Source: Desulfuromonadaceae bacterium (lineage in GTDB: Bacteria; Desulfobacterota; Desulfuromonadia; Geobacterales; Pseudopelobacteraceae). Taken from it: DNA of 64,000 nucleotides. Under the pieces are notes generated by a model. The model did no database searches, was not told the origin of the DNA, and saw only the letters and a program-made list of their open reading frames with translations. The stretch lies in the NCBI GenBank assembly GCA_028712075.1, contig JAQTQX010000019.1:25896-89895 (forward strand), read 5' to 3'. A program made the position numbers and the translations under genes. Below are positions 1-10,975 of this stretch, piece after piece (within the stretch, counting starts at the first letter, position 1; each line of letters starts with the position of its first letter).

Positions 1-1907
1 CTCTGTTCTGTGAGATCGATTATCCAAAGGGTTTTGATACAACGAACTCTACGTATAAAGATTTATTAACAACAGTTGCAGCCATTAAAAAAGACCTTAT
101 TGTCCGGCGTTATCAAGTCATGACTTACTGTGAGTATTACAAGGGAGACGAAGGAGGGATGCCTGAAATCCCACCAGATAAAAAGGATATTTGGTTAATC
201 CTAAAACTCAAGATTTCTGGAGCAGCATATAGTCTTATCAAATATATTGATTCTGCTCTGGATGCTATTCAATTAACCGAATCGCAAATAATGCTCGTGA
301 CTAGCATGGCTGGACAAGGCAAAACGAACTTCATTTGTGATTTTGCCGAGAATTTTTGTTCAAAGTTCGATCTGCCAGCAGTTCTTATTCCTGCAAGGGA
401 ATTAAATACAGTTCCAAATCAGAGCATTGTGCAATACCTGCTAAATAACAGATACTTGTCACAGCTTAAGGATAAGTTTGAACTATTTGGCTTTTTTGAG
501 CAAGTCGCGGTTTCATCAAACAAGCCTTTTGTAATTTTGGTTGATGGCTTGAATGAGATAAAAAACACAGAGTCATTCCGTACAGAAATCAACGATGTTC
601 TAACTATCGCCTCAGAGTACCAATCCATAAAATTCATATTGACCTGTAGAACAGAATTTTTTGAACAAAAATTTTCATATCTTCTGAACAGCAGTTATTC
701 AGAAAAAGTGTATCATTTAAAGAATTTAAAAGCTGAGATGGAGGATTTTCATCTTAACCAAGCACTTGCTGCATATTTCAATTTTTTCAATATCACTGCT
801 GATTTAAGTGAGAATGCTACGGATTTTCTTAAACGTGATCTTCTTCTACTTAGGATTTTCTGTGAAAATAGCCAAGGTTGTAATCTTGGAAAAATTGACG
901 ACATTTATAAGGAAGAATTATTTGAGAATTATCTCTTGAAGGTAATTGATGGATTTGGCAGAAACACGAAGAAAATGGCGTTGCCAACGTTGTTCAAGCT
1001 TGTTAATGCAATGATAGAGGATGGCAGCCTTGCGAGCATGTCTACTGAGAAATTTAGTAGTGCAGAGTTAGAAGTCATAGAGCACCTCGTCAACGACGAG
1101 ATAATATTGCGGCATGAGATGCCGGAAATAGGACTGATGGCAATCGGTCATGAGTACGTAAATTTCACATATGATGAGCTTAGAGACTTTATTATTGCCT
1201 ACTATCTAGTGATGGATGTGTCTGGCCGAGATTTTGTTGAGTATAAACGGCTTGTTTCAAGAATAACAAAAGGGCAAGCCTATGAAGGTATGACAAAATT
1301 TTCCTACATACTCTCAAGAAAACATCATGTGGATGCAGTATCATCATTTATTGAAGAGCAGGATGATTTTTTATATAACTACTCAATATTGTTGCATTCG
1401 TTTTCACCCAAATATCACATTCAAAAAGACATTCAAATTATTCAGAATATACTATCAAGTAATAAACATGCACTAATGGTCAGAAGAACGGCTGCATATT
1501 TATTTAACCGTGACAAATTCAATGAAATACTCAACCTAAATATTCTCGTAAACCACATCAACTCTCTTGGTGATGATGATTACGTTACCTTCCTAAGAAC
1601 AATCTTTGATACCTACGGATATAGTCATCGCGAAGACTCACAACCAGGTAAGCTAGTAAAAAGTTATACCAACGACGTGTACAAGGTGATTGATTCATTG
1701 AAGGATGATCTTTTCATTTTTCTTTTGCAGGCAGCATCATCAACACGAGGTGGTACATATTATGACTTCGTAAATGCCTGCGTTAATGCTTATAGAGATA
1801 ATAGAAAGCTGAATTGTTTTGAGTATGTAGCTAAAGCTAAGTCTAGGCAAGTTCAGCAGATTGTTGGTGAGATTATAACGCGAGGGGATTATGCGCAAAA
1901 AAAATAA
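1..1907 (+). CDS. NACHT-type STAND P-loop NTPase (NLR-like), possibly 5'-partial
   Basis: The reading frame is open from the window edge to 1907, with no stop between nt 3 and 1907. The first in-window ATG is at 120 and has no convincing RBS. Walker A is SMAGQGKTN and Walker B is FVILVDGLNE, followed by FILTCRTE, which together form the NACHT/STAND signature. The long helical C-terminal region has no recognisable repeats. Codon usage is AT-rich. Confidence 0.75.
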   Translation, partial: LFCEIDYPKGFDTTNSTYKDLLTTVAAIKKDLIVRRYQVMTYCEYYKGDEGGMPEIPPDKKDIWLILKLKISGAAYSLIKYIDSALDAIQLTESQIMLVTSMAGQGKTNFICDFAENFCSKFDLPAVLIPARELNTVPNQSIVQYLLNNRYLSQLKDKFELFGFFEQVAVSSNKPFVILVDGLNEIKNTESFRTEINDVLTIASEYQSIKFILTCRTEFFEQKFSYLLNSSYSEKVYHLKNLKAEMEDFHLNQALAAYFNFFNITADLSENATDFLKRDLLLLRIFCENSQGCNLGKIDDIYKEELFENYLLKVIDGFGRNTKKMALPTLFKLVNAMIEDGSLASMSTEKFSSAELEVIEHLVNDEIILRHEMPEIGLMAIGHEYVNFTYDELRDFIIAYYLVMDVSGRDFVEYKRLVSRITKGQAYEGMTKFSYILSRKHHVDAVSSFIEEQDDFLYNYSILLHSFSPKYHIQKDIQIIQNILSSNKHALMVRRTAAYLFNRDKFNEILNLNILVNHINSLGDDDYVTFLRTIFDTYGYSHREDSQPGKLVKSYTNDVYKVIDSLKDDLFIFLLQAASSTRGGTYYDFVNACVNAYRDNRKLNCFEYVAKAKSRQVQQIVGEIITRGDYAQKK

Positions 1908-2253
1908 TTCGCTTCTGCTTCATCTTGATTCGATTCCAACATTTGAAGAATTTTCTGCTCAGATGAAGGTCTCTCCCAATGGATTTGGGTCTATCGTCTT
2001 GCGCTATGTTTATAGAAATATTTTCATCGACTCTGACGACCTACTTGAAGAGTACAATAAATACTACTCGGTAGAGTATCAAACTTTTTGCGCCTTCCTA
2101 TCTAAAAAAATTGGAGTTGAAATAGCTCCGACTGAAATTGAGGCAAAACATATTTTACGCATAGATCCATGGTTCACGCTACTCGATCCAATATACGACA
2201 ATAATTTTTTAGAAATGATAATAGGCCATTTGGGAGTTCACCGTGAAAATTAA
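1891..2253 (+). CDS. hypothetical protein (120 aa), translationally coupled to the NTPase gene
   Basis: ATG 1891 overlaps the NTPase stop codon by 17 nt. It shares the AT-rich codon style of its neighbours. I recognise no domain. Confidence 0.5.
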   Translation: MRKKNNSLLLHLDSIPTFEEFSAQMKVSPNGFGSIVLRYVYRNIFIDSDDLLEEYNKYYSVEYQTFCAFLSKKIGVEIAPTEIEAKHILRIDPWFTLLDPIYDNNFLEMIIGHLGVHREN

Positions 2254-2254
2254 A

Positions 2255-2641
2255 ATGGATTTTGTGTCTAACAGCTCATCAACATCATTCATTTACATGG
2301 GCAATGGCAATCTCAGCAAAAAAGTTTTTTTTGCAGCTGTTGGAGTTGCTAAGGATAGTCCTTTGATTGAAATATTTGATAGTCTTTATTATGCAATAAC
2401 AAGTGCAATCGATTCAGGAGAAAAAATCATCAATGAGGCTCAACTTGAACAGAAAGTTGAATATCCCGATTTTACAAAAGAAGTAATTGAAAAAGCAAAA
2501 GACGCCTTGGCTCAAGGGAAAAATGTCGTAATTGCAAAATTAAGCAGTGATGGCGACATCGGTGAAAGCTTTCTGTGCATGGAGGCTTTTGAAATTCTTT
2601 CATCGGACTTTTATTTAAGCGCCCTTGACAATTATTGGTGA
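2255..2641 (+). CDS. hypothetical protein (~128 aa)
   Basis: ATG 2255 lies 1 nt after the previous stop; an alternative GTG at 2243 overlaps it. The N-terminus has the Ser-rich motif FVSNSSSTSF. I recognise no family. Confidence 0.5.
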   Translation: MDFVSNSSSTSFIYMGNGNLSKKVFFAAVGVAKDSPLIEIFDSLYYAITSAIDSGEKIINEAQLEQKVEYPDFTKEVIEKAKDALAQGKNVVIAKLSSDGDIGESFLCMEAFEILSSDFYLSALDNYW

Positions 2642-2644
2642 ATT

Positions 2645-3673
2645 ATGAAAATGCGGCGCTATCAAGAGTTAGGCTATACAACATTATTTAACGCCAATAC
2701 GGGATTTTTTGCCCGGATTGAGGACAAAGGAAAAGCCGAACCATTCTGGGCCCAAAATGGTCCTGAGTTACTTGATATTGCCATAACCAGTTGGTGTGAT
2801 AAAGGATGTGACTTCTGTTATCGAAGTGCTGGGACTGATGGTAAACATATGTCACTAGATGACTACCGGCGTCTGATCGATCTGGCGGCCTCTATAGGGG
2901 TATATCAGGTTGCTCTCGGAGGTGGTAATCCAAACCAACATCCCGATTTTATTGAGATGCTAGAATATACCCAACATAAAGGAATTGTTCCAAACTATAC
3001 GACGAATGGCAGAGGGCTCACTACTGAAATTATTAAAGCATCAAAAATGTATTGTGGAGCGGTCGCCGTTAGCGCATATGAACCATATATTGAGACTGCG
3101 ACCGCTATTAAAAATCTTCTTGAATCAAATATTAAAGTTAATGTTCATTTTGTCCTTAGTTCTAAAAGTATAGGATCTGCAATAGAGTGGTTGAATAATC
3201 CACCTAAAATAATTAATGGAATCAACGCACTAATTTTTTTAAATTACAAACCTACTGGAAGAACAGTATTTCCAGATCTGATGATTAAGGACAACCCACT
3301 ACTCAAGCAATTTTTCCGTACTGCAACATCAATTCGCTACCCTTTTAAAATTGGTTTTGACTCTTGTAGCATCAGCGGTGTGTTTTCGCATACAGACGCA
3401 AGCTCGTCAATGGTAGAAGCTTGTGACGCCGGAAGGTTTTCAATGTTTATATCTGAAGAAATGAAAGCCTATCCATGTTCATTTTACAAAGCTTTTTCCG
3501 ATGGAGAACCCATAACAGACAAATCAAGTTTCATAAGTATTTGGCAAAATTCGCATGATTTCAACGGAGCGAGGGAATACTTTCGCTCTGATAGCTGCAA
3601 ATGCGATATCAAAAGAAAGTGTTTAAATGGCTGTCCGCTGTTTACTGACCTTAAAATTTGTGGAAGAACCTGA
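2645..3673 (+). CDS. radical SAM enzyme with C-terminal SPASM/twitch-like Cys cluster
   Basis: CX3CX2C cluster WCDKGCDFCY. GGE-like SAM motif ALGGGNP. C-terminal ACDAGRFSMFISEEMKAYPC followed by CKCDIKRKCLNGCP, resembling an auxiliary Fe-S (SPASM) domain. Only a 3-nt gap separates it from the upstream ORF. Confidence 0.85.
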   Translation: MKMRRYQELGYTTLFNANTGFFARIEDKGKAEPFWAQNGPELLDIAITSWCDKGCDFCYRSAGTDGKHMSLDDYRRLIDLAASIGVYQVALGGGNPNQHPDFIEMLEYTQHKGIVPNYTTNGRGLTTEIIKASKMYCGAVAVSAYEPYIETATAIKNLLESNIKVNVHFVLSSKSIGSAIEWLNNPPKIINGINALIFLNYKPTGRTVFPDLMIKDNPLLKQFFRTATSIRYPFKIGFDSCSISGVFSHTDASSSMVEACDAGRFSMFISEEMKAYPCSFYKAFSDGEPITDKSSFISIWQNSHDFNGAREYFRSDSCKCDIKRKCLNGCPLFTDLKICGRT

Positions 3674-3749
3674 TGGATAATGGTGGCTTATAGCGTCTAT
3701 GATAGGACTGTTTTCCACTAACCATCTATTTCGATTAAGGAAAGATTCA

Positions 3750-4640
3750 ATGAATATGTTGATTCTCAACATCCCCACAGCCATATTCTTACTTTCTCTG
3801 CTGTTCCCTCTCGCTGCAATATTCTGGTTTCGCCATTCTTGCAATAAGCACCGCACACCATTAACTCAAGATCTCTTGCGTGGCCCAGGGGATTCAATCC
3901 GCAAGGTAATCCAAAAAGTAGATGAGGATATTGACACTTACCTTATGATGATAGTCGTACTTCCCGTTACATGCTACGCAGTGTATATCACAGACCGGTA
4001 TGCAGCCAAGGATCATGCTCATTGGGTTGTTTATGTTCTCATCCTAGTTCTATCCCTTATATATTTTACCTTAAAGCTTGCACAAAGCCTCAAACAGCGT
4101 AACAACCTGCGTCTCGGCCTGGATTGCGAAATAGCCGTCGGGCAGGAACTGAACCGACTGATGCTTGGCGGTCATCACGTCTATCATGACTTCCTCGCCG
4201 ATAAATTCAATATTGATCATGTTGTTGTCGGGCCGAACGGTGTCTTTGCAGTGGAAACCAAAGGTCGGGCAAAATCAGACAAAAATCGTGAAGCTGATGA
4301 TGTGAAGGTGATTTTTGATGGCGATGTCTTGAAGTTTCCTGAGTGGACAGAGCGTAACTATCTGCCCCAAGCTCGACGGCAGGCCGATTGGCTGGCAAAC
4401 TGGCTCAGTAGTGCAGTTGGAGAAAAGATACCGGTAAAACCTGTGTTGGTTATTACGGGCTGGTTTGTGACAATCCTGAAGCCGTGTGATGTGCTGCTGG
4501 CGAGTGGGAAAAACATTCACCTCGTTATTCCCAAGCAGCGGGAAAATACCCTTACAGGCGAGCAGATTACACGTATTGCCCACCAGCTTGAGCAAAAATG
4601 CCGTAACGTGGAGCCGTTGGCATACAAGAAGAATCCCTGA
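3750..4640 (+). CDS. membrane-anchored NERD-domain (nuclease-related) protein
   Basis: Three N-terminal hydrophobic segments precede the NERD core HVYHDFLADKFNIDHVVVGPNGVFAVETKG. An AAGGAAAG RBS lies upstream of ATG 3750. The open frame extends back to 3699. Confidence 0.8.
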   Translation: MNMLILNIPTAIFLLSLLFPLAAIFWFRHSCNKHRTPLTQDLLRGPGDSIRKVIQKVDEDIDTYLMMIVVLPVTCYAVYITDRYAAKDHAHWVVYVLILVLSLIYFTLKLAQSLKQRNNLRLGLDCEIAVGQELNRLMLGGHHVYHDFLADKFNIDHVVVGPNGVFAVETKGRAKSDKNREADDVKVIFDGDVLKFPEWTERNYLPQARRQADWLANWLSSAVGEKIPVKPVLVITGWFVTILKPCDVLLASGKNIHLVIPKQRENTLTGEQITRIAHQLEQKCRNVEPLAYKKNP

Positions 4641-4690
4641 AATCGGTTTAGGCTCCACAACAAGCAGAGAACAATAACGGAATTCCTGAG

Positions 4691-5665
4691 ATGATCGACA
4701 TCTACATCAAATCCTTCTCCACCCTCCGCTCCGACATCAGCCGCACCCGCTGGACGGCAGCAACCAAATTCCGCGCTCCGCACAAACCGCTCCTGCTGCT
4801 GGCCGTGATCGACCTCATCGCCCAGGGCATCATAAAAACCAACTTCATCGAATTCACCCCCGACCTGGGGGAACTGTTCACCATCTACTGGTCCCGCGTC
4901 ATGCCCCCTGATCAGCGCTCAAACATCATCCTCCCGTTTTATCATCTGGGTTCCGACAAATTCTGGCACCACATCCCGAAACCTGGCATGGAAGCAGTTC
5001 TTGCCGCCACCCGCCAGATCAGGGGCGTGGCCCAGTTGCAGGAAATCGTGCTGGGGGTGAAACTTGATGATGAACTGTACACACTGCTCTGCCGGGAAGA
5101 ATCGCGCAATATGCTGAGAACCACCCTGATTGAAACCTGTTTTGCGCCGGAACTGCATGCCGCTCTGGTCGAACAGGGGATCATCAACAAGGAAGCTTTC
5201 CAATACAGCCAGACGCTTCTGGAGCAATCGCGCCATCAGCGGGTTCAGGAAGGTGAGGGTGCAGAGCAATACGCCCCGGCGGTGCGGGATCAGGCGTTCA
5301 GGCGGGTCATTGTCAGCATGTATGATCATCGTTGCGCCGTGTGCGGCATCCGCATGCTGACCGCTGATTGCCATACCGTGGTTGACGCCGCCCATATCGT
5401 GCCGTGGAGCTTGACGCATAACGACACTGTCCAGAACGGCATGGCGCTCTGCCGCCTCTGCCATTGGACTTTTGATGAGGGCTTGATCACCGTTTCCGGT
5501 TCATACGCCGTACTGGTCTCAAAACAATTATCCGCGAACAACAATATCCCAAGCCACATGCAGACCCTCTCCGGTCGCCCCATCATCGGGCCCGCCGAAC
5601 AGTTGTTTTGGCCTGAACCGGACGCGCTTCACTGGCACCAACAGAAGATCTTCAGGAAATATTGA
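4691..5665 (+). CDS. HNH endonuclease (HNH_2-type) with uncharacterised ~200-aa N-terminal domain; type IV restriction-like
   Basis: C-terminal motif HRCAVCG..HTVVDAAHIVPW..NGMALCRLCHWTFDEG. The N-terminus reads FSTLRSDISRTRWTAATKFRAPHKPLLLLAVIDLI. Confidence 0.85.
   Translation: MIDIYIKSFSTLRSDISRTRWTAATKFRAPHKPLLLLAVIDLIAQGIIKTNFIEFTPDLGELFTIYWSRVMPPDQRSNIILPFYHLGSDKFWHHIPKPGMEAVLAATRQIRGVAQLQEIVLGVKLDDELYTLLCREESRNMLRTTLIETCFAPELHAALVEQGIINKEAFQYSQTLLEQSRHQRVQEGEGAEQYAPAVRDQAFRRVIVSMYDHRCAVCGIRMLTADCHTVVDAAHIVPWSLTHNDTVQNGMALCRLCHWTFDEGLITVSGSYAVLVSKQLSANNNIPSHMQTLSGRPIIGPAEQLFWPEPDALHWHQQKIFRKY
4713..4818 (+). repeat. Direct repeat copy A (5' end of the intact HNH gene)
   Basis: The core CTTCTCCACCCTCCGCTCCGACA.CAGCCGC.CCCGCTGGACGGCAGCAACCAAAT.CCGCGC.CCGCACAA.CCGCTCCTGCTGCTGGCCGT is shared with copies at 5811, 6661 and 8581. 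Confidence 0.9.
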
Positions 5666-5781: not shown

Positions 5782-5787
5782 TCGATC

Positions 5788-5897
5788 TGGCTCACCCACT
5801 ACCTGAAAACCTTCTCCACCCTCCGCTCCGACACCAGCCGCTCCAGCTGGACAGCCGCAACCAAATACCGTGCCCGCATAAGCCGCTCCTGGCTGAC
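5788..5897 (+). pseudogene. Orphan 5' fragment of an HNH-endonuclease paralogue (repeat copy B)
   Basis: It translates as WLTHYLKTFSTLRSDTSRSSWTAATKYRA. The start codon position is mutated and there is a 1-nt deletion relative to the other copies. Similarity ends near 5897, next to the PIN gene stop. Confidence 0.8.
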
Positions 5898-5902
5898 GGT
5901 AG

Positions 5903-6522: not shown

Positions 6523-6639
6523 ACCTGCTCCCTTTAGTGCGTCAACCTCTGTCGATATCGCGGAACGACCACCCCCGAAAAGGGAGGACTTGCTACATAA
6601 CAAGTGTGTTGATCGTACTGAGAAAATATCATGTTCTAC

Positions 6640-6765
6640 AATTAAATCCATAAAAAACAACTTCTCCCCCCTCCGCTCCGACACCAGCCGCTCCCGCTGG
6701 ACGGCAGCAACCAATTACCGCGCCCCGCACAAGCCGCTCTTGCTGCTGGCCGTTATCGACCTCAT
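6640..6765 (+). pseudogene. Orphan 5' fragment of an HNH-endonuclease paralogue (repeat copy C)
   Basis: It translates as IKSIKNNFSPLRSDTSRSRWTAATNYRAPHKPLLLLAVIDLI and has no start codon. Similarity stops at 6765. Confidence 0.8.
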
Positions 6766-6777
6766 TTATTTTAAATC

Positions 6778-6816
6778 ACAATGCATATTTAAATTATAAC
6801 TTTAAATATGCATTGT
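6778..6816. repeat. Perfect 16-bp-arm palindrome (ACAATGCATATTTAAA-N7-TTTAAATATGCATTGT)
   Basis: Arms are at 6778-6793 and 6801-6816. It begins 12 nt after the breakpoint of repeat C and ends 1 nt before ATG 6818. Confidence 0.9.
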
Positions 6817-6817
6817 T

Positions 6818-8044
6818 ATGCCGTCCTGTTCATGCTACTCTCCTCTCATGACCTACATTCCCCGTGACATCGAAACACGACTGGTGCGACTGCTCGCATC
6901 TTCTCCCTGCGTAGCAGTTACCGGCCCGCGCCAGGCCGGCAAGTCAACCCTGCTCAGGCACTGCCTTCCAGACTATCAATACGTTACCCTGGATGACCCG
7001 TTTTACCGGGAACAGGCCCATGCCGACCCGCTGCTCTTTCTGGACTCACTGGGAGAACGGTCTATCATCGACGAAATTCAGCTTGCGCCAAGTCTGCTCT
7101 CCTATGTCAAAATCCGGGTGGATAACCGGCGCAGTGTCAAAGGACAGTATGTCTTTACCGGCTCGCAGCAGTTCGGTCTGATCAAGAACCTGAGCGATTC
7201 GCTGGCCGGACGGATTGCTCTGCTGGAGCTGCTTCCGTTGTCGGTGGCCGAGAAACGGCGGTATCTGCCGCTACCGGATACCATCAGCCTGTTCAGGCAT
7301 GCGGCCCTGAGCGGCTGCTATCCCGAGCTGGTCGTGGATGAGGCCGTCGATCTGCCGTCGTGGTACGCCTCCTATCTGCAGACCTATCTGGAGCGCGATA
7401 TCCGCACACTCTACAATATCGGCGATTTGCGTGACTTCCAGCGGTTTGTGCGCCTGCTCGCGGCCCGCTGCGGTCAACAATTGAACATGTCCGATTTCAG
7501 CCGCGATCTGGGCATCTCCGTCCCGACCATTAAAAGCTGGCTCTCGATCCTGGAGGCCAGCCGGGTGGTCTATCTGCTGCCGCCGTACTATGCCAACATG
7601 GGCAAACGCATCACCAAGTCGCCCAAGGTCTATTTCATCGATATCGGTCTGGCCTGCAACCTGGCCGGGGTGCGGGATGAAGCACATCTCTTCAACGGTC
7701 CGATGGCTGGTCATCTGTTCGAAAACTTCTGCATACAGGAAACGGTCAAGTTTTTTCTGGGGAAGGGTGTACAGCCGCCGTTGTACTACATCAGGACCGG
7801 CAACGGCCTGGAGGTTGACCTGCTCGTCGAACCGTCAGCCGGGGTTCTGATTCCTGTGGAGATCAAACTTGGCAAAACTCCAACTCCGCAGCAGGCCCGG
7901 ACTCTGGCTTCCTTCCGTGCATCGTTCGCCCAGCTTGATCCGAAGCCTGGTCTACTGCTCTCACTTGCCGATCAGACCCGTTCGCTGACCCGCGAAGTTA
8001 CGGCGGTTACGCTGGATGATTATTTCGGACGGTTGGAAGGCTAA
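6818..8044 (+). CDS. AAA-family ATPase with DUF4143-like C-terminal domain
   Basis: Walker A is VAVTGPRQAGKSTLL and Walker B-like is SIIDEIQ. The C-terminal region (KVYFIDIGL..., LFENF) is typical of AAA_14/DUF4143 ATPases. An alternative start exists at 6848. Confidence 0.8.
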   Translation: MPSCSCYSPLMTYIPRDIETRLVRLLASSPCVAVTGPRQAGKSTLLRHCLPDYQYVTLDDPFYREQAHADPLLFLDSLGERSIIDEIQLAPSLLSYVKIRVDNRRSVKGQYVFTGSQQFGLIKNLSDSLAGRIALLELLPLSVAEKRRYLPLPDTISLFRHAALSGCYPELVVDEAVDLPSWYASYLQTYLERDIRTLYNIGDLRDFQRFVRLLAARCGQQLNMSDFSRDLGISVPTIKSWLSILEASRVVYLLPPYYANMGKRITKSPKVYFIDIGLACNLAGVRDEAHLFNGPMAGHLFENFCIQETVKFFLGKGVQPPLYYIRTGNGLEVDLLVEPSAGVLIPVEIKLGKTPTPQQARTLASFRASFAQLDPKPGLLLSLADQTRSLTREVTAVTLDDYFGRLEG

Positions 8045-8070
8045 GTACACAGAGGCGGGGTCTGCCATGA

Positions 8071-8172
8071 CATGAGACAATTATAGGAGAAATCAAAGGC
8101 GGAGACAAGTCAACCCAGCACAAGGATATTGAAACGGCAAAAGCTTACTGGAAGCGACAAAGGGAGAAATAG
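8071..8172 (+). pseudogene. C-terminal remnant of a HigB/RelE-type addiction-module killer protein
   Basis: It translates as ..IIGEIKGGDKSTQHKDIETAKAYWKRQREK*. GGDKSTQ.KDI is the conserved C-terminus of this toxin family. Only about 33 codons remain, directly upstream of the antidote gene. Confidence 0.6.
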
Positions 8173-8174
8173 CA

Positions 8175-8486
8175 ATGGCAAGAAAAACCGGCAATTATCA
8201 TTCGGAACATATTGAGTGGTTAAAAGACCCGGAGAATGCAGCCGGATACCTTAATGCAGTCATTGAAGAGGAAGATAAAGACGCTTTGCTTTTGGCGCTT
8301 CGCAATATCGCTGGAGCGGAAGGCGGCATGGCAGCAGTCGCAGAAAAGGCGCATCTTAAGCGGGAGAGTCTGTACCGCATGCTTTCCCCCAGTGGCAATC
8401 CGGCCCTGTCAAACCTGTTTTCCATACTTCATGGCATGGGATTGAAAATGACTATTCAGCCGGATAAGGCGGTAACGGCAACTTGA
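8175..8486 (+). CDS. HigA-type addiction-module antidote protein (HTH)
   Basis: LKDPENAAGYLNAVIEEEDKDALLLALRNIA..AEKAHLKRESLYRMLSPSGNP.LSNL..IL.GMGLKMTI matches the antidote family usually paired with the GGDKSTQ toxin. Confidence 0.8.
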   Translation: MARKTGNYHSEHIEWLKDPENAAGYLNAVIEEEDKDALLLALRNIAGAEGGMAAVAEKAHLKRESLYRMLSPSGNPALSNLFSILHGMGLKMTIQPDKAVTAT

Positions 8487-8562
8487 CGCCGCTGGCAAAA
8501 CCTCCGGGATCAGGTTGGACTTTCAGACAATTGAATATCCATTACTACAACGGTAATCCGAT

Positions 8563-8674
8563 ATGCTCACCAACTACCTGCAAACCTTCTCCACCCTCCG
8601 CTCCGGCACCAGCCGCTCCCGCTGGACGGCAGCAACCAAATACCGCGCCCCGCACAAACCGCTGTTTCTGCTGG
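8563..8674 (+). pseudogene. Orphan 5' fragment of an HNH-endonuclease paralogue (repeat copy D)
   Basis: The ATG is retained. It translates as MLTNYLQTFSTLRSGTSRSRWTAATKYRAPHKPLFLLG and then diverges. About 20 nt upstream of the ATG also resembles the leader of the intact gene. Confidence 0.8.
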
Positions 8675-8755
8675 GGTGTGTTGGGGAATACACCTTTAAA
8701 AACTGGCCTGATTCGGCAGGTCGTGTGATCTGGTGCTTAAAGGAGGAGTACCGAT

Positions 8756-8989
8756 ATGACAGCAAAAGAAATTATCAAACTGTCCATCTTTGAAGGAAAA
8801 CAAATCAGAAAAACCGTTCATGCTGAAGAATGGTATTTTTCCGTTATTGATGTTGTCGCGATATTATCTGAATCACCAACTTCTCGCCAATACTGGGGGA
8901 AAGTCAAGAGGAGGGAATTTACTGACTTTCAGTTGTCCCCAGTTTGGGTACAACTGAAGCTTGAAGCCGACGATGGGGAAGCTGTATAG
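8756..8989 (+). CDS. Bro-N-like domain protein, probably C-terminally truncated (77 aa)
   Basis: A strong AAAGGAGG RBS precedes the start. FEGKQIRKTVHAEEWYFSVIDVVAILSES..SRQYW resembles Bro-N/antirepressor N-terminal domains. The protein ends abruptly after LKLEADDG. Confidence 0.5.
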   Translation: MTAKEIIKLSIFEGKQIRKTVHAEEWYFSVIDVVAILSESPTSRQYWGKVKRREFTDFQLSPVWVQLKLEADDGEAV

Positions 8990-9066
8990 GGGTCGTATCT
9001 CAACTTCGTACGTCTCAAAAGAATATTCCATGGCCAACCTAACCGACTCCCCCCCTAACAATATTT

Positions 9067-9095
9067 CGGGCGGAACCAGTAACTGGTTCCGCCCG
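9067..9095. terminator. 13-bp GC-rich hairpin downstream of the minus-strand PHP-like gene
   Basis: CGGGCGGAACCAG-TAA-CTGGTTCCGCCCG. The flanking U-tract is weak on both strands. Confidence 0.4.
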
Positions 9096-9127
9096 AATTG
9101 TCTGGTGATGCCCGGATTGAATGTTGA

Positions 9128-10975
9128 TTACTTGTCTTTTTTCTCTACTACTTTCACAACAACCGGATTCGAGTAGAACCAGAGATCGTCCCACGCCATG
9201 TCAGCATTGCTGGTGCCGGGAGTATTGATAAGCGGGCTGCCGTTTGCATCGGTACCATAGACAATTTTAGTTCCGGTGGAGTCCATCTGCTTCACGTCGT
9301 AGCCGAGGTTGGTGCCGCGAATACGGAAGAACATATTATTCTGCACATTCGGTACGTCGAAGGTCATGGTGGTGTAGCCGTCATGACTTTTCCATGAAGT
9401 GGCATCAAACGTCTTGACGATACTGGCAACCGTCGGATCGATTGTTTTGAACTCCGGATTCGGTGTTACGCCATCAGCAAGAAATTTGCCGGCCCTGGTC
9501 GGATTGATGCGGCCCTGAATCAGCTGAACATGGTGAACAGCCGGAGCTTTGCAGATATAGCCGGCAGAAGCGTTGACACCGGCCTGGCAGTTGTTGCCGG
9601 ATGGAGTTTTGAAGGCGATTTTGACAGTAGCGTTCTGTCCTTTTCTAACGAACAGGGTTTCACCCATGGTCGCAGTTTCTTCATCGTGATGATTCCCGGC
9701 CTGCACTTTAAAATCAAGTTCGTTGATCAGGTCACCATGTACGGAGAAGGCGTTGCCGGAACGGAGACCATTGACAACATCTTCCTGGGTATACACATTC
9801 TCATGATCGTGATCTTTTTCACTCTTTTCGTCGTGCTCGCTGTCCTTGTCCTTATGATCGTTATGGCTGTTCTGTTTTACCTTCACGTAGGTCTTCAGGT
9901 ATTCACCCGGCCAGAAGTCTGCACCGGCATCATTGTGAAAATCTGAACTGGCGAAGTTGTAAAACCTGCGGCCATCAGCCAGCAGGTTGTCCCAGAGGCC
10001 GCCGACAGTGGCGATGTAGTATCCCGCGCCGCCGTAGGTACCGCCACCACAAGCTCCTGCACCGAATCCGCCACGGCCTGTTTCTTTCTCATGGCCGGGG
10101 ATCCCTTCAAAACCGAAGGCAACGGTCGGTCCGTTGTCGTTGATATCGCGGAAGGCTGCGATGTTCCAGGCGCCACCGGTAAGGCCGCAGCCGGCCCGTT
10201 CAACATGAGCCGGAACCATGTAGCCGGTTGTCGGGTAGTTGGCCTGCATCCACTTGACGCCGTCGATTGTTTTGTTGTGCAATTTGTTTAAGCCGAGTGT
10301 AGAAGAGTAGTCAGGTGCAGAGGCGGTGTATTCTGAACTCTGTTTTTTTCCGGTCCACCCCATTTTGTCAGCGGTGTTGGTAGTCAACGTACCGTCAGAG
10401 TCGGAGTTGTCGAAGCGGTATTCGAATTCGGCAATCGGCAGTGCGTTCGCAGCGACAATGCCGGTGCTGCAATGCTCGTGCCCCGGCGGGTTCCACTCCA
10501 TCCCGGACATAGCCAATTTGTTCGGATAGTTGGCACGAATAGTATTGATCCAGTCAAATGCTCCCATGTATGCCGGTCCGGCGTAGCCCGGAATGTCAGA
10601 AGTGCTGATAAGGGTCTGCCAACGCCACATTTTGCCGGCATCACCGACTGCAGGGTTCGGTGAATAGGTGCTCCAGGCATTATTAAAGTTGTCCTTGCCG
10701 CTGGCTCCGCCATGTTCGCTGTTGGCCTGGAAATCGACTCCGAAGCGGTACCCCTGAGGAATTACCCCTCTCCTGTAGAGCCCGGCCGGTTCTTTCCACG
10801 GAAACGTGGCTATTACACCGGGAGCCGTCAGGTCATTCATCGGGTAGGAGCCATCGGTGTATGTTGTGTGCTGATGGAAATCACCGGTCATCCACTTCTC
10901 GCCGGCCAGGGCGCTTCCAGCCGACAACATTGCTACTGTGAGAACTGCTGCGCATACTTTGCTGTTTGCTTTCAT
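9128..10975 (-). CDS. secreted PHP-like metal-dependent phosphoesterase with His/Asp/Lys-rich insert
   Basis: Signal peptide MKANSKVCAAVLTVAMLSAGSALA. The N-terminal GDFHQHTTYTDGS resembles the PHP HxH motif, and further His motifs follow (NSEHGG, GHEHC, PAHVE, SSDFHND). It carries the insert HNDHKDKDSEHDEKSEKDHDHEN. Confidence 0.65.
   Translation of the reverse strand: MKANSKVCAAVLTVAMLSAGSALAGEKWMTGDFHQHTTYTDGSYPMNDLTAPGVIATFPWKEPAGLYRRGVIPQGYRFGVDFQANSEHGGASGKDNFNNAWSTYSPNPAVGDAGKMWRWQTLISTSDIPGYAGPAYMGAFDWINTIRANYPNKLAMSGMEWNPPGHEHCSTGIVAANALPIAEFEYRFDNSDSDGTLTTNTADKMGWTGKKQSSEYTASAPDYSSTLGLNKLHNKTIDGVKWMQANYPTTGYMVPAHVERAGCGLTGGAWNIAAFRDINDNGPTVAFGFEGIPGHEKETGRGGFGAGACGGGTYGGAGYYIATVGGLWDNLLADGRRFYNFASSDFHNDAGADFWPGEYLKTYVKVKQNSHNDHKDKDSEHDEKSEKDHDHENVYTQEDVVNGLRSGNAFSVHGDLINELDFKVQAGNHHDEETATMGETLFVRKGQNATVKIAFKTPSGNNCQAGVNASAGYICKAPAVHHVQLIQGRINPTRAGKFLADGVTPNPEFKTIDPTVASIVKTFDATSWKSHDGYTTMTFDVPNVQNNMFFRIRGTNLGYDVKQMDSTGTKIVYGTDANGSPLINTPGTSNADMAWDDLWFYSNPVVVKVVEKKDK

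Follow-up and report, generated by a model that had tools for sequence, protein, structure and literature searches.

Nucleotides 3–3673 of the window, the 64,000-nucleotide stretch of Desulfuromonadaceae contig JAQTQX010000019.1 analyzed here, comprise four tightly packed, co-directional open reading frames (ORFs), ORF1 to ORF4. They encode a nucleoside triphosphatase (NTPase) of the STAND type (signal transduction ATPases with numerous domains), two orphan small proteins, and a radical S-adenosylmethionine (SAM) enzyme with a predicted SPASM domain, and the four genes form an obligate, strict unit. The cassette very probably serves in anti-phage defence, and we think it probable, though well short of certain, that it is an abortive-infection module derived from Avs2, in which ORF1 would oligomerize and free its N-terminal effector, and in which ORF2, ORF3, and the radical SAM protein would be obligate partners replacing the sensor domain. 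STAND proteins that resemble the NLR receptors (nucleotide-binding, with leucine-rich repeats) serve as central receptors of immunity in every domain of life, and each is usually seen as one polypeptide that itself binds a protein of the pathogen.

Gene Layout of the Cassette

The window carries most of the four-gene module, and the 5′ part of ORF1 lies outside it: the ORF1 frame is open from nt 3 to its stop at 1907 and runs into the window edge. The full ORF1 was taken from locus L001 of the Desulfuromonadaceae metagenome-assembled genome (MAG) GCA_028688735.1, reached via an exact-protein look-up of ORF4. There, the gene spans positions 6606–9263 and encodes 885 amino acids, and nt 3 of the window corresponds to residue 252. 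A preliminary description, made from the window sequence, had listed four packed co-directional ORFs with a 17-nt overlap between ORF1 and ORF2 (ORF2 start at 1891) and a 3-nt gap between the ORF3 stop at 2641 and ORF4, which begins at 2645; all of this was borne out. The 1-nt gap that it placed before ORF3 was wrong. The start of ORF3 is almost certainly GTG 2243 (MKIKMDFVSNSSS...), because homologues begin with MKI+xDFVSNSSS; this start gives an 11-nt overlap with ORF2, and ATG 2255 is too far downstream. The block is indeed AT-richer than the rest, with a GC content of 0.34–0.43 over nt 1–4000 versus 0.48–0.58 from about 4500 on. Scans gave promoter-like sites in numbers no higher than in shuffled sequence, and 7 terminator-like sites versus a shuffle mean of 3.5 (about twofold), yet none at an operon boundary. 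The features of the cassette are as follows (REase, restriction endonuclease).

3–1907, plus strand: ORF1, C-terminal 634 residues (252–885) of a SMEK_N(Mrr/REase)–linker–STAND NTPase protein; the effector and the beginning of the linker fall outside the window, upstream of it
312–326, plus strand: ORF1 Walker A motif GQGKT (Lys358 at nt 321–323); motif in 72/78 orthologues
531–557, plus strand: ORF1 Walker B motif VILVDGLNE (Asp432); columns invariant or nearly so in alignment A9
636–656, plus strand: ORF1 NACHT-type sensor-1 motif ILTCRTE (Arg467); C267 and R268 invariant in A9
1891–2253, plus strand: ORF2, 120 aa, orphan, fast-evolving small protein in a constant slot of the cassette
2050–2079, plus strand: ORF2 Tyr-rich motif E-Y-x-K-Y-Y-S-x-E-Y (family alignments A3 and A5)
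2243–2641, plus strand: ORF3, 132 aa, orphan, predicted alpha/beta protein; found in 80/80 genome loci
2270–2290, plus strand: ORF3 N-terminal motif N-S-S-S-T-S-F; invariant in the 29-sequence alignment A2
2636–2638, plus strand: ORF3 C-terminal Trp codon, last before the stop; final residue in 78/80 orthologues
2645–3673, plus strand: ORF4, 342-aa radical SAM/SPASM enzyme, the most conserved cassette gene; PF04055 match
2795–2818, plus strand: ORF4 CxxxCxxC radical SAM cluster motif (C51, C55, C58); invariant in alignment A1
3422–3661, plus strand: ORF4 SPASM-type auxiliary-cluster region (C260, C278, C318, C320, C326, C330, C339); seven Cys invariant in A1, region aligned with SuiB

The Four Genes Form an Obligate, Mobile Unit

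A scan with the ORF4 alignment against one genome per GTDB species returned 80 loci. Every one of them (80/80) holds homologues of ORF1 and ORF3 together with the radical SAM gene, with strand and order unchanged, and ORF2 was detected by tblastn in 58 of the 80, with all but one of the rest holding an ORF of 119–152 aa in its slot. Conversely, metagenome contigs were scanned with the NTPase as the anchor, which gave 80 further loci. Of these, 67 have over 1.2 kb of DNA downstream, and in all 67 ORF2, ORF3, and the radical SAM gene follow in order; the 13 loci lacking the radical SAM gene are cut contigs, and ORF2 occupied its slot in each of the 75 loci with room for it. In the plasmid database PLSDB, ORF1 and the radical SAM gene occur on the same 7 plasmids. 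As homologues share order and strand across 160 independent loci, the conservation of order is far beyond chance. Clearly, ORF1–ORF2–ORF3–ORF4 is an obligate, strict unit: the synteny that the preliminary description had proposed to check is conserved in every locus examined, and its idea of a multi-gene NLR-like (STAND) module is supported.

The cassette occurs in more than 12 phyla with a patchy distribution. The proteobacterial hosts belong to the Alpha-, Beta-, Gamma-, and Zetaproteobacteria, and others to the Desulfobacterota, Campylobacterota, Bacteroidota, Verrucomicrobiota, Planctomycetota, Acidobacteriota, Chloroflexota, Cyanobacteria, Clostridium, Nitrospirota, Myxococcota, and Chlamydiae, as well as to three archaeal MAGs. 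In Klebsiella aerogenes the cassette lies on an integrative and conjugative element (ICE), and in A. tumefaciens Ach5 on the pAt plasmid, beside DUF4365, (p)ppGpp synthetase, and integrase genes. In the genome of the window it forms a low-GC patch within higher-GC DNA, with Abi_2, BglII-like REase, YhcG nuclease, NERD, HNH/PT-restriction-like, and PIN genes around it. It is, then, a horizontally mobile cassette, and it is not a named system in PADLOC 2.0 or NCBIfam.

ORF1 Has an Avs2-like NTPase Module and a Short Tail in Place of the Avs2 Sensor

Full-length ORF1 consists of a SMEK_N domain (residues 10–149), a helical linker in which a KYIPxxFVE motif is conserved, the NTPase, and a short C-terminal domain. 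The NACHT signature that had been read from GQGKT, VILVDGLNE, and ILTCRTE is present and conserved in the orthologues: the pattern G[QHTKR]GKTN matched 72 of 78 called orthologues, the other six being cut fragments or missed by it, and in A9 the Walker B residues D233, G234, N236, and E237 show no or almost no variation. ORF1 thus has the full set of STAND motifs, i.e., Walker A, Walker B, and the sensor-1 Arg. Pfam NACHT (PF05729) stays below its gathering score on ORF1 (22 bits, E = 1.6e-4, versus a cut-off of 26.7), and the NTPase reads as NACHT-like but divergent.

The profile matches clearly point to an Avs2-like NTPase module. The PADLOC Avs2 model matches ORF1 at 1.2e-17 and that of NCBIfam at 3e-12, and the sole match of the ORF1 profile in the PDB was Avs2 9o4e (residues 224–659, 1.1e-10). 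However, ORF1 fails the full-length Avs2 equivalog (45 bits versus the NCBIfam cut-off of 1000), and the alignments cover only Avs2 residues ~150–660. ORF1 lacks the ~800-residue C-terminal sensor of Avs2 and has instead a short, poorly conserved tail (mean pairwise identity 0.15–0.23 over aa 700–885). The lengths of the orthologues range from 734 to 1178 aa.

The N-Terminal Effector of ORF1 Is Exchanged While the Rest of the Cassette Is Constant

The preliminary description had suspected an N-terminal effector upstream of the window, and one was found in the 885-aa protein: SMEK_N, read from L001, matches its Pfam model at 3.6e-43. A profile of 31 SMEK_N domains matches PDB entry 26bh, the Mrr domain of a Mrr-APAZ prokaryotic Argonaute system of Kordia jejudonensis, with E = 9e-46, and SMEK_N matches the PADLOC model of an Argonaute-associated REase (Aga_REase-PNTD1-PNTD2) at 2.6e-51. 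The ‘SMEK domain’, on which we found no literature, therefore corresponds to the Mrr/REase-type effector of short Argonaute systems, an identity masked by the NCBI name ‘SMEK domain-containing protein’. Its invariant residues are E37, D67, Q78-x-T80, and K87. Since they form a variant of the PD-(D/E)xK pattern, DNA cleavage by SMEK_N is presumed rather than certain. SMEK_N also occurs in proteins of ~110–345 aa from Bacillus, Acinetobacter, and Vibrio plasmids with no NTPase or radical SAM gene nearby (plasmid loci L172–L174 and 33 PLSDB records), and these short stand-alone proteins mark it as a promiscuous effector module.

N-terminal domain types were counted among 73 clustered ORF1 orthologues.

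SMEK_N: 45/73
Helical type, in Bacteroidota: 12/73
Domain of ~293 aa: 5/73
Very short N-terminus: 5/73
CBASS-type PNP nucleosidase (PADLOC effector, 5e-21): 1/73
Trypsin-like protease: 1/73
LmuA-like alpha/beta hydrolase: 1/73
Cys-peptidase-like domain: 1/73
Domain with two transmembrane segments: 1/73
Unassigned 173-aa domain (L071): 1/73

The region before the KYIP motif is thus swapped among orthologues, while the NTPase, ORF2, ORF3, and the radical SAM protein stay constant. A swappable N-terminus is the signature of the death effector of an immune STAND protein, and the radical SAM enzyme is therefore not the effector, contrary to what had been proposed for it at the outset. The constancy of ORF2, ORF3, and ORF4 across these exchanges suggests that the trio is part of a constant sensing or regulatory core.

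ORF2 and ORF3 Are Orphan Families, and the Cassette Differs from the KpAvs2 Operon

Both small proteins had been described as orphans, and they remain so. Neither ORF2 nor ORF3 has a match in Pfam, NCBIfam, PADLOC, or PHROG. AlphaFold2 models built from the family alignments reached predicted local distance difference test (pLDDT) values of 77.5 for ORF2 and 81 for ORF3; in Foldseek searches, the ORF2 model had no significant match in the PDB, and the ORF3 model nothing at E < 0.1 in the PDB and BFVD. Judged from these models, ORF2 and ORF3 are two protein families that have no detectable fold relatives. TRADD-N, the top-ranked match for the fold of ORF3, was rejected as noise (E = 0.8, TM-score 0.15).

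The ORF3 family comprises 535 clusters at 50% identity, and the best-scoring 150 of these 535 are all stand-alone proteins of ~120–150 aa or shorter fragments. The FVSNSSSTSF motif noted earlier is present in ORF3, and NSSSTSF recurs in nearly all 80 loci, one of which reads NSSTTSF. In ORF2, residues E54, Y59, E62, and Y63 are invariant in A5, and the last three of these (Y59, E62, Y63) vary little or not at all in A3. ORF2 was also considered as a chaperone of the PqqD or RiPP recognition element (RRE) type, RiPP standing for a ribosomally synthesized peptide with post-translational modifications, and this was rejected, as 0 of 48 family members match Pfam PqqD and the model has no significant PDB match.

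A Methylobacterium plasmid seemed to offer a fusion of ORF3 to a radical SAM protein, the N-terminus of the latter reading GHATNSSSSHSIV. This candidate was discarded: the likeness to ORF3 is that of the motif alone (hmmsearch 0.9 bits; hhalign probability 11%). The locus itself (L089, Methylobacterium indicum plasmid pVL1_2, 4695–7909) encodes a 600-aa AAA+ ATPase followed by a 441-aa radical SAM protein, whose extreme N-terminus, LRIGHATNSSSSHSIV, resembles the DFVSNSSSTSF of ORF3 at a level that is not significant. It is only a lead to a possibly wider association of NSSS motifs with radical SAM proteins.

The described system that comes nearest to the cassette is KpAvs2 of Klebsiella pneumoniae, a protein of at least 1352 aa with a Mrr nuclease, a STAND module, and the long Avs2 C-terminal sensor, encoded in a three-gene operon with Avap1, a radical SAM protein, and Avap2 (Bechon et al. 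2024, Nat Commun, PMC11564622). The operon confers abortive-infection defence. Avap2, an HHpred match to DUF6375, is indispensable and attaches to the bundle of helices that joins the KpAvs2 nuclease to the NTPase, while Avap1 is needed against T2 and dispensable against SECphi18; no viperin-type nucleotides were found for Avap1, its model has no NTP pocket, and Avap partners accompany about 5% of Avs2 proteins (PMC11564622). With this operon validated in 2024, the statement in the preliminary description that antiviral radical SAM enzymes are not linked to STAND proteins no longer stands, Ophion (radical SAM + PHP + phosphoribosyltransferase (PRTase)) being another non-viperin radical SAM defence system, and the claim that no system of this composition had been described was overstated.

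One may then ask whether the cassette simply is the KpAvs2–Avap1–Avap2 system, with ORF4 as the Avap1 orthologue, ORF3 or ORF2 as a relative of Avap2/DUF6375, and only the extra small gene new. We regard this as rather unlikely. The cassette does share the Mrr-family N-terminal domain (in L001) with the KpAvs2 type, and its strictly linked radical SAM gene is a candidate counterpart of Avap1. However, it has four genes rather than three, and its genes are linked in 100% of cases, whereas partners accompany ~5% of Avs2 proteins. ORF1 (885 aa; orthologues 734–1178 aa) lacks the long C-terminal sensor, its similarity to Avs2 stopping at about residue 659, and KpAvs2 has at least 1352 aa. The candidate identity of ORF2 or ORF3 with DUF6375 (PF19902) was rejected, since HMMER gave no match at E ≤ 1 among 48 ORF2 and 29 ORF3 members; as the link of Avap2 to DUF6375 came from HHpred alone, remote homology is still conceivable despite the HMMER result. 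Tblastn of plasmids with ORF1 yielded no canonical Avs2, and a relaxed tblastn of plasmids for KpAvs2, Avap1, and Avap2 found none of them. A K. pneumoniae prophage record whose last stretch is the beginning of a SMEK_N gene speaks for the identity with KpAvs2.

This record is that of a P2-like prophage, Klebsiella phage ST15-OXA48phi14.1 (NC_049454.1, L171), in which 96 codons of a SMEK_N/Mrr-type gene, 41% identical to ORF1, lie on the minus strand at positions 2–289, at the end of the record and just past the integrase. Possibly, a KpAvs2-like gene begins here, at the border of the prophage.

ORF4 Resembles Protein- and Peptide-Modifying SPASM Enzymes

ORF4 matches Pfam Radical_SAM (PF04055) at 1.5e-13 (51.7 bits, cut-off 29.5) and has 2220 homologues, on many of which PF13186 is already annotated. 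The motifs CDKGCDFC and GGGNP and the C-terminal Cys cluster that had been pointed out are all present. The homologues have the canonical SPASM spacing Cx2Cx5Cx3C, and the copy in the window has Cx1Cx5Cx3C; from the conserved cysteines, ORF4 is predicted to carry a 7-Cys SPASM domain with its cluster sites. The ORF4 profile aligns with SuiB (5v1q) over aa 49–333, SPASM domain included, and also matches PqqE and SkfB, so that the nearest solved structures are protein- or peptide-modifying SPASM enzymes. The radical SAM protein is also the most conserved of the four (mean pairwise identity 0.57), followed by ORF3 (0.40), ORF2 (0.27), and the ORF1 C-terminus (0.15–0.23), a gradient that fits a constrained enzyme with fast-evolving interface parts. 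ORF4 misses the cut-offs of all curated NCBIfam families, viperin included, by a wide margin.

Could ORF4 act, in the style of viperin or Ophion, on a small molecule or nucleic acid? Its product would then be an antiviral or signalling compound, ORF2 and ORF3 would serve as scaffolds, and ORF1 would be the sensor or a second effector. Ophion shows that non-viperin radical SAM defence exists, and the PADLOC models of prokaryotic viperins (pVip) match the radical SAM core at 4e-11. These pVip matches, however, are confined to the N-terminal ~100 residues (aa 46–147), and the score with NF038283 is 34.9 bits versus a cut-off of 180. The full 7-Cys SPASM domain and the peptide-modifying nearest relatives argue in the other direction, as do the Avap1 results cited above, in which neither viperin-type nucleotides nor an NTP pocket appeared (PMC11564622). 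Moreover, the cassette has no nucleotide kinase, PRTase, or PHP gene. A point in favour of this possibility, which we nevertheless judge to be quite improbable, is that a full-length homologue in T4-like phages does without ORF2 and ORF3.

That phage protein deserves a closer description. A full-length radical SAM protein ~29% identical to ORF4 (phrog_7293, 4e-32) is encoded in 172 records of T4-like phages, among them Slopekvirus, Karamvirus, and Cronobacter, Enterobacter, and Citrobacter phages; an example is Klebsiella phage vB_KM5a1_KLB10 (L084, 4941–6086). Its cluster motif reads CX7CX2C, and its C-terminal Cys are fewer than those of ORF4. ORF2 or ORF3 homologues were looked for next to the phage gene and none were found. 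The phage enzyme could serve counter-defence, act as a decoy, or be an independent use of the same chemistry.

The preliminary description had also raised a RiPP-like cassette under STAND control, i.e., a peptide- or cofactor-maturation cassette of the PQQ, mycofactocin, or streptide type, with ORF2 or ORF3 as the precursor, the STAND protein as a mere regulator, and no immune role. The best NCBIfam matches of the radical SAM protein are indeed MftC, WgkB, NirJ2, AhbD, and PqqE, the terminal Trp of ORF3 recalls C-terminal modification sites, and a combination of an FxSxx-COOH peptide, a radical SAM/SPASM enzyme, and an AP-ATPase has been described (Kaur et al. 2020, eLife, PMC7159879). Against that, the equivalog scores are far under the cut-offs (≤67 bits in round figures versus 265–850; the best, MftC, 67.5 bits versus 265), and a match to a known RiPP or cofactor family, which would have told against a new system, was thus not obtained. 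The cassette has no short precursor, RRE/PqqD, peptidase, or transporter/exporter gene, and ORF4 itself lacks an RRE domain because just 45 residues precede its cluster motif. ORF3 is predicted with confidence to be a folded protein of ~133 aa. Finally, the interchangeable death-effector domains of ORF1 are typical of immune STAND proteins, and carriage on an ICE and plasmids goes together with a patchy phyletic pattern. A maturation cassette of this kind therefore appears very improbable.

Proposed Mode of Action

Gene content, obligate linkage, domain identities, effector exchange, and mobility are shown by the data, whereas the defence role, the activation of a nuclease, and any function of the radical SAM enzyme are inferred. 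On the reading that we prefer, an Avs2-derived abortive-infection module, ORF1 would be receptor, switch, and executioner in one polypeptide. By analogy with the Avs proteins, an infection cue would cause nucleotide-dependent oligomerization of ORF1, which would turn on the N-terminal effector, the output presumably being DNA cleavage by the Mrr/REase-like SMEK_N. ORF2, ORF3, and the radical SAM protein would be obligate partner subunits that apparently replace the ~800-residue Avs2 sensor. ORF2 and/or ORF3 might dock on ORF1 in the way that Avap2 docks on the KpAvs2 linker, and the radical SAM enzyme would act on a protein substrate, most plausibly ORF3, at NSSSTSF or at the C-terminal Trp. 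We favour ORF3 because the relatives of the enzyme modify peptides or proteins and because the terminal motifs of ORF3 are conserved. The modification state of the small protein would then gate or broaden the activation of the NTPase.

The most explicit form of this idea is that the enzyme modifies folded ORF3, possibly with ORF2 as co-substrate or chaperone, and that the modified protein is a ligand or co-receptor that arms or gates the sensor-less NTPase. We put it forward tentatively and consider it doubtful in this exact form. To our knowledge, radical SAM protein chemistry within innate immune sensing has not been described in any kingdom. If true, this form would also account for enzymes of the Avap1 type.

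Several points weigh against the preferred mode of action. The canonical (D/E)xK position reads QxT in SMEK_N, and nuclease activity is not assured. ORF3 is a candidate substrate only, and no RRE/PqqD signal was seen among the 48 ORF2 members compared with Pfam PqqD. As the phage radical SAM protein has no ORF2 or ORF3 neighbours, enzymes of this kind may act on another target. The flanks of the 80 genome loci are heterogeneous, with housekeeping, mobile-element, and defence genes mixed. Finally, the family has no phenotype on record; the cassette was absent from 5,426 complete E. coli genomes (megablast/blastn with the K. aerogenes copy as the query), and it has therefore probably escaped E. 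coli-based screens.

Neighbouring Genes and Repeats

The NERD (PF08378, 1.3e-15), HNH_2 (3.3e-12), and PIN_3 genes reported beside the cassette do adjoin it in the window and have the corresponding domain matches, but as a module context these genes and the toxin–antitoxin (TA) genes did not hold up, being neighbours in this genome only. NERD and HNH were rejected as module members, as they are absent beside the cassette in 79 of 80 loci (HNH was detected once by tblastn). The 125 flanking ORFs sampled match 166 Pfam families, with no recurrent partner. Directly upstream of ORF1, L001 (2527–6381) encodes Abi_2, an HI1420-downstream-domain gene, PDDEXK_3, a BglII-like restriction endonuclease, and a YhcG/DUF1016 nuclease; in view of these defence genes, the cassette lies inside a larger defence island that extends to the left of the window.

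A gene for an HNH_2-type endonuclease adjoins the cassette in three unrelated hosts, the window MAG, Roseovarius albus, and Klebsiella aerogenes. Its positions are as follows.

Window, 4691–5665: HNH_2-type gene
L006, ~3167–3541: HNH_2-type gene
L085, 5593–6390: HNH_2-type gene

The association is loose or coincidental, since the gene is absent from most loci. The HNH_2 gene of the window resembles a phosphorothioated (PT)-DNA-binding restriction endonuclease (NF045808, 9e-42, below the family cut-off).

The window also contains a direct repeat of ~115 nt in four plus-strand copies (4688–4802, 5785–5899, 6635–6749, and 8560–8674) that are 69–85% identical; its 46-nt core was observed 4 times versus 0 expected. 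The first copy makes up the 5′ end of the coding sequence of the HNH/PT-DNA-restriction-like gene. The remaining copies, three orphan 5′ fragments, flank small cassettes: PIN with an antitoxin, an AAA-type ATPase (6818–8044), and a HigA-like gene. From its sequence, this arrangement has the look of successive insertion events, or of recombination, at a single attachment-like site.

Comparison with Known Systems

Mrr-APAZ short prokaryotic Argonaute systems share with the cassette the domain family of their Mrr effector, to which the SMEK_N of ORF1 belongs; the cassette, however, has no APAZ or Argonaute partner, and couples the domain to a STAND NTPase. With the SPASM maturases SuiB, PqqE, MftC, SkfB, and anSME, ORF4 has in common the CxxxCxxC core and the 7-Cys SPASM domain. 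It differs from them in having neither an RRE nor a short precursor, its partners being an immune-type STAND protein and two small proteins predicted to fold. The FxSxx-COOH systems of Kaur et al. are alike in concept only, in that a radical SAM/SPASM enzyme and a small protein are tied to a STAND NTPase in a conflict system. The cassette lacks their metallopeptidase, FxSxx C-terminal peptide, and vWA-MoxR core, and the STAND clade is AP-ATPase there and Avs2-like NACHT here. Ophion, too, is a precedent in concept only. The main text of a 2026 census of 589 STAND clades makes no mention of radical SAM partners (PMC13581612).

The linker–NTPase–winged-helix module of Avs2 (AVAST type 2; 9o4e; NF041813) is homologous to that of ORF1 (1e-10 to 1e-17), and the N-terminal effector is variable in both. 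In contrast to Avs2, ORF1 has no terminase-sensing C-terminal domain, is 885 aa long versus ~1300–1500 aa, and never occurs alone.

The closest parallel is the KpAvs2 operon. In both, the STAND protein is composed of a Mrr-type nuclease domain, a helical linker, and an Avs2-like NTPase, and in both a radical SAM gene shares the operon with small protein(s) of unassigned function. KpAvs2–Avap1 is the one validated STAND–radical SAM case, and it makes an awkward model, as the role of the enzyme is unexplained and the partner optional. The cassette is a cleaner one: the radical SAM enzyme and the two orphans are obligate across more than 12 phyla, beside a STAND protein without the usual sensor domain, and the contribution of radical chemistry to NLR-type immunity thereby becomes a testable question. 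Taken together, the sequence comparisons indicate that what is new relative to the KpAvs2 operon is a four-gene, sensor-less, obligately linked variant.

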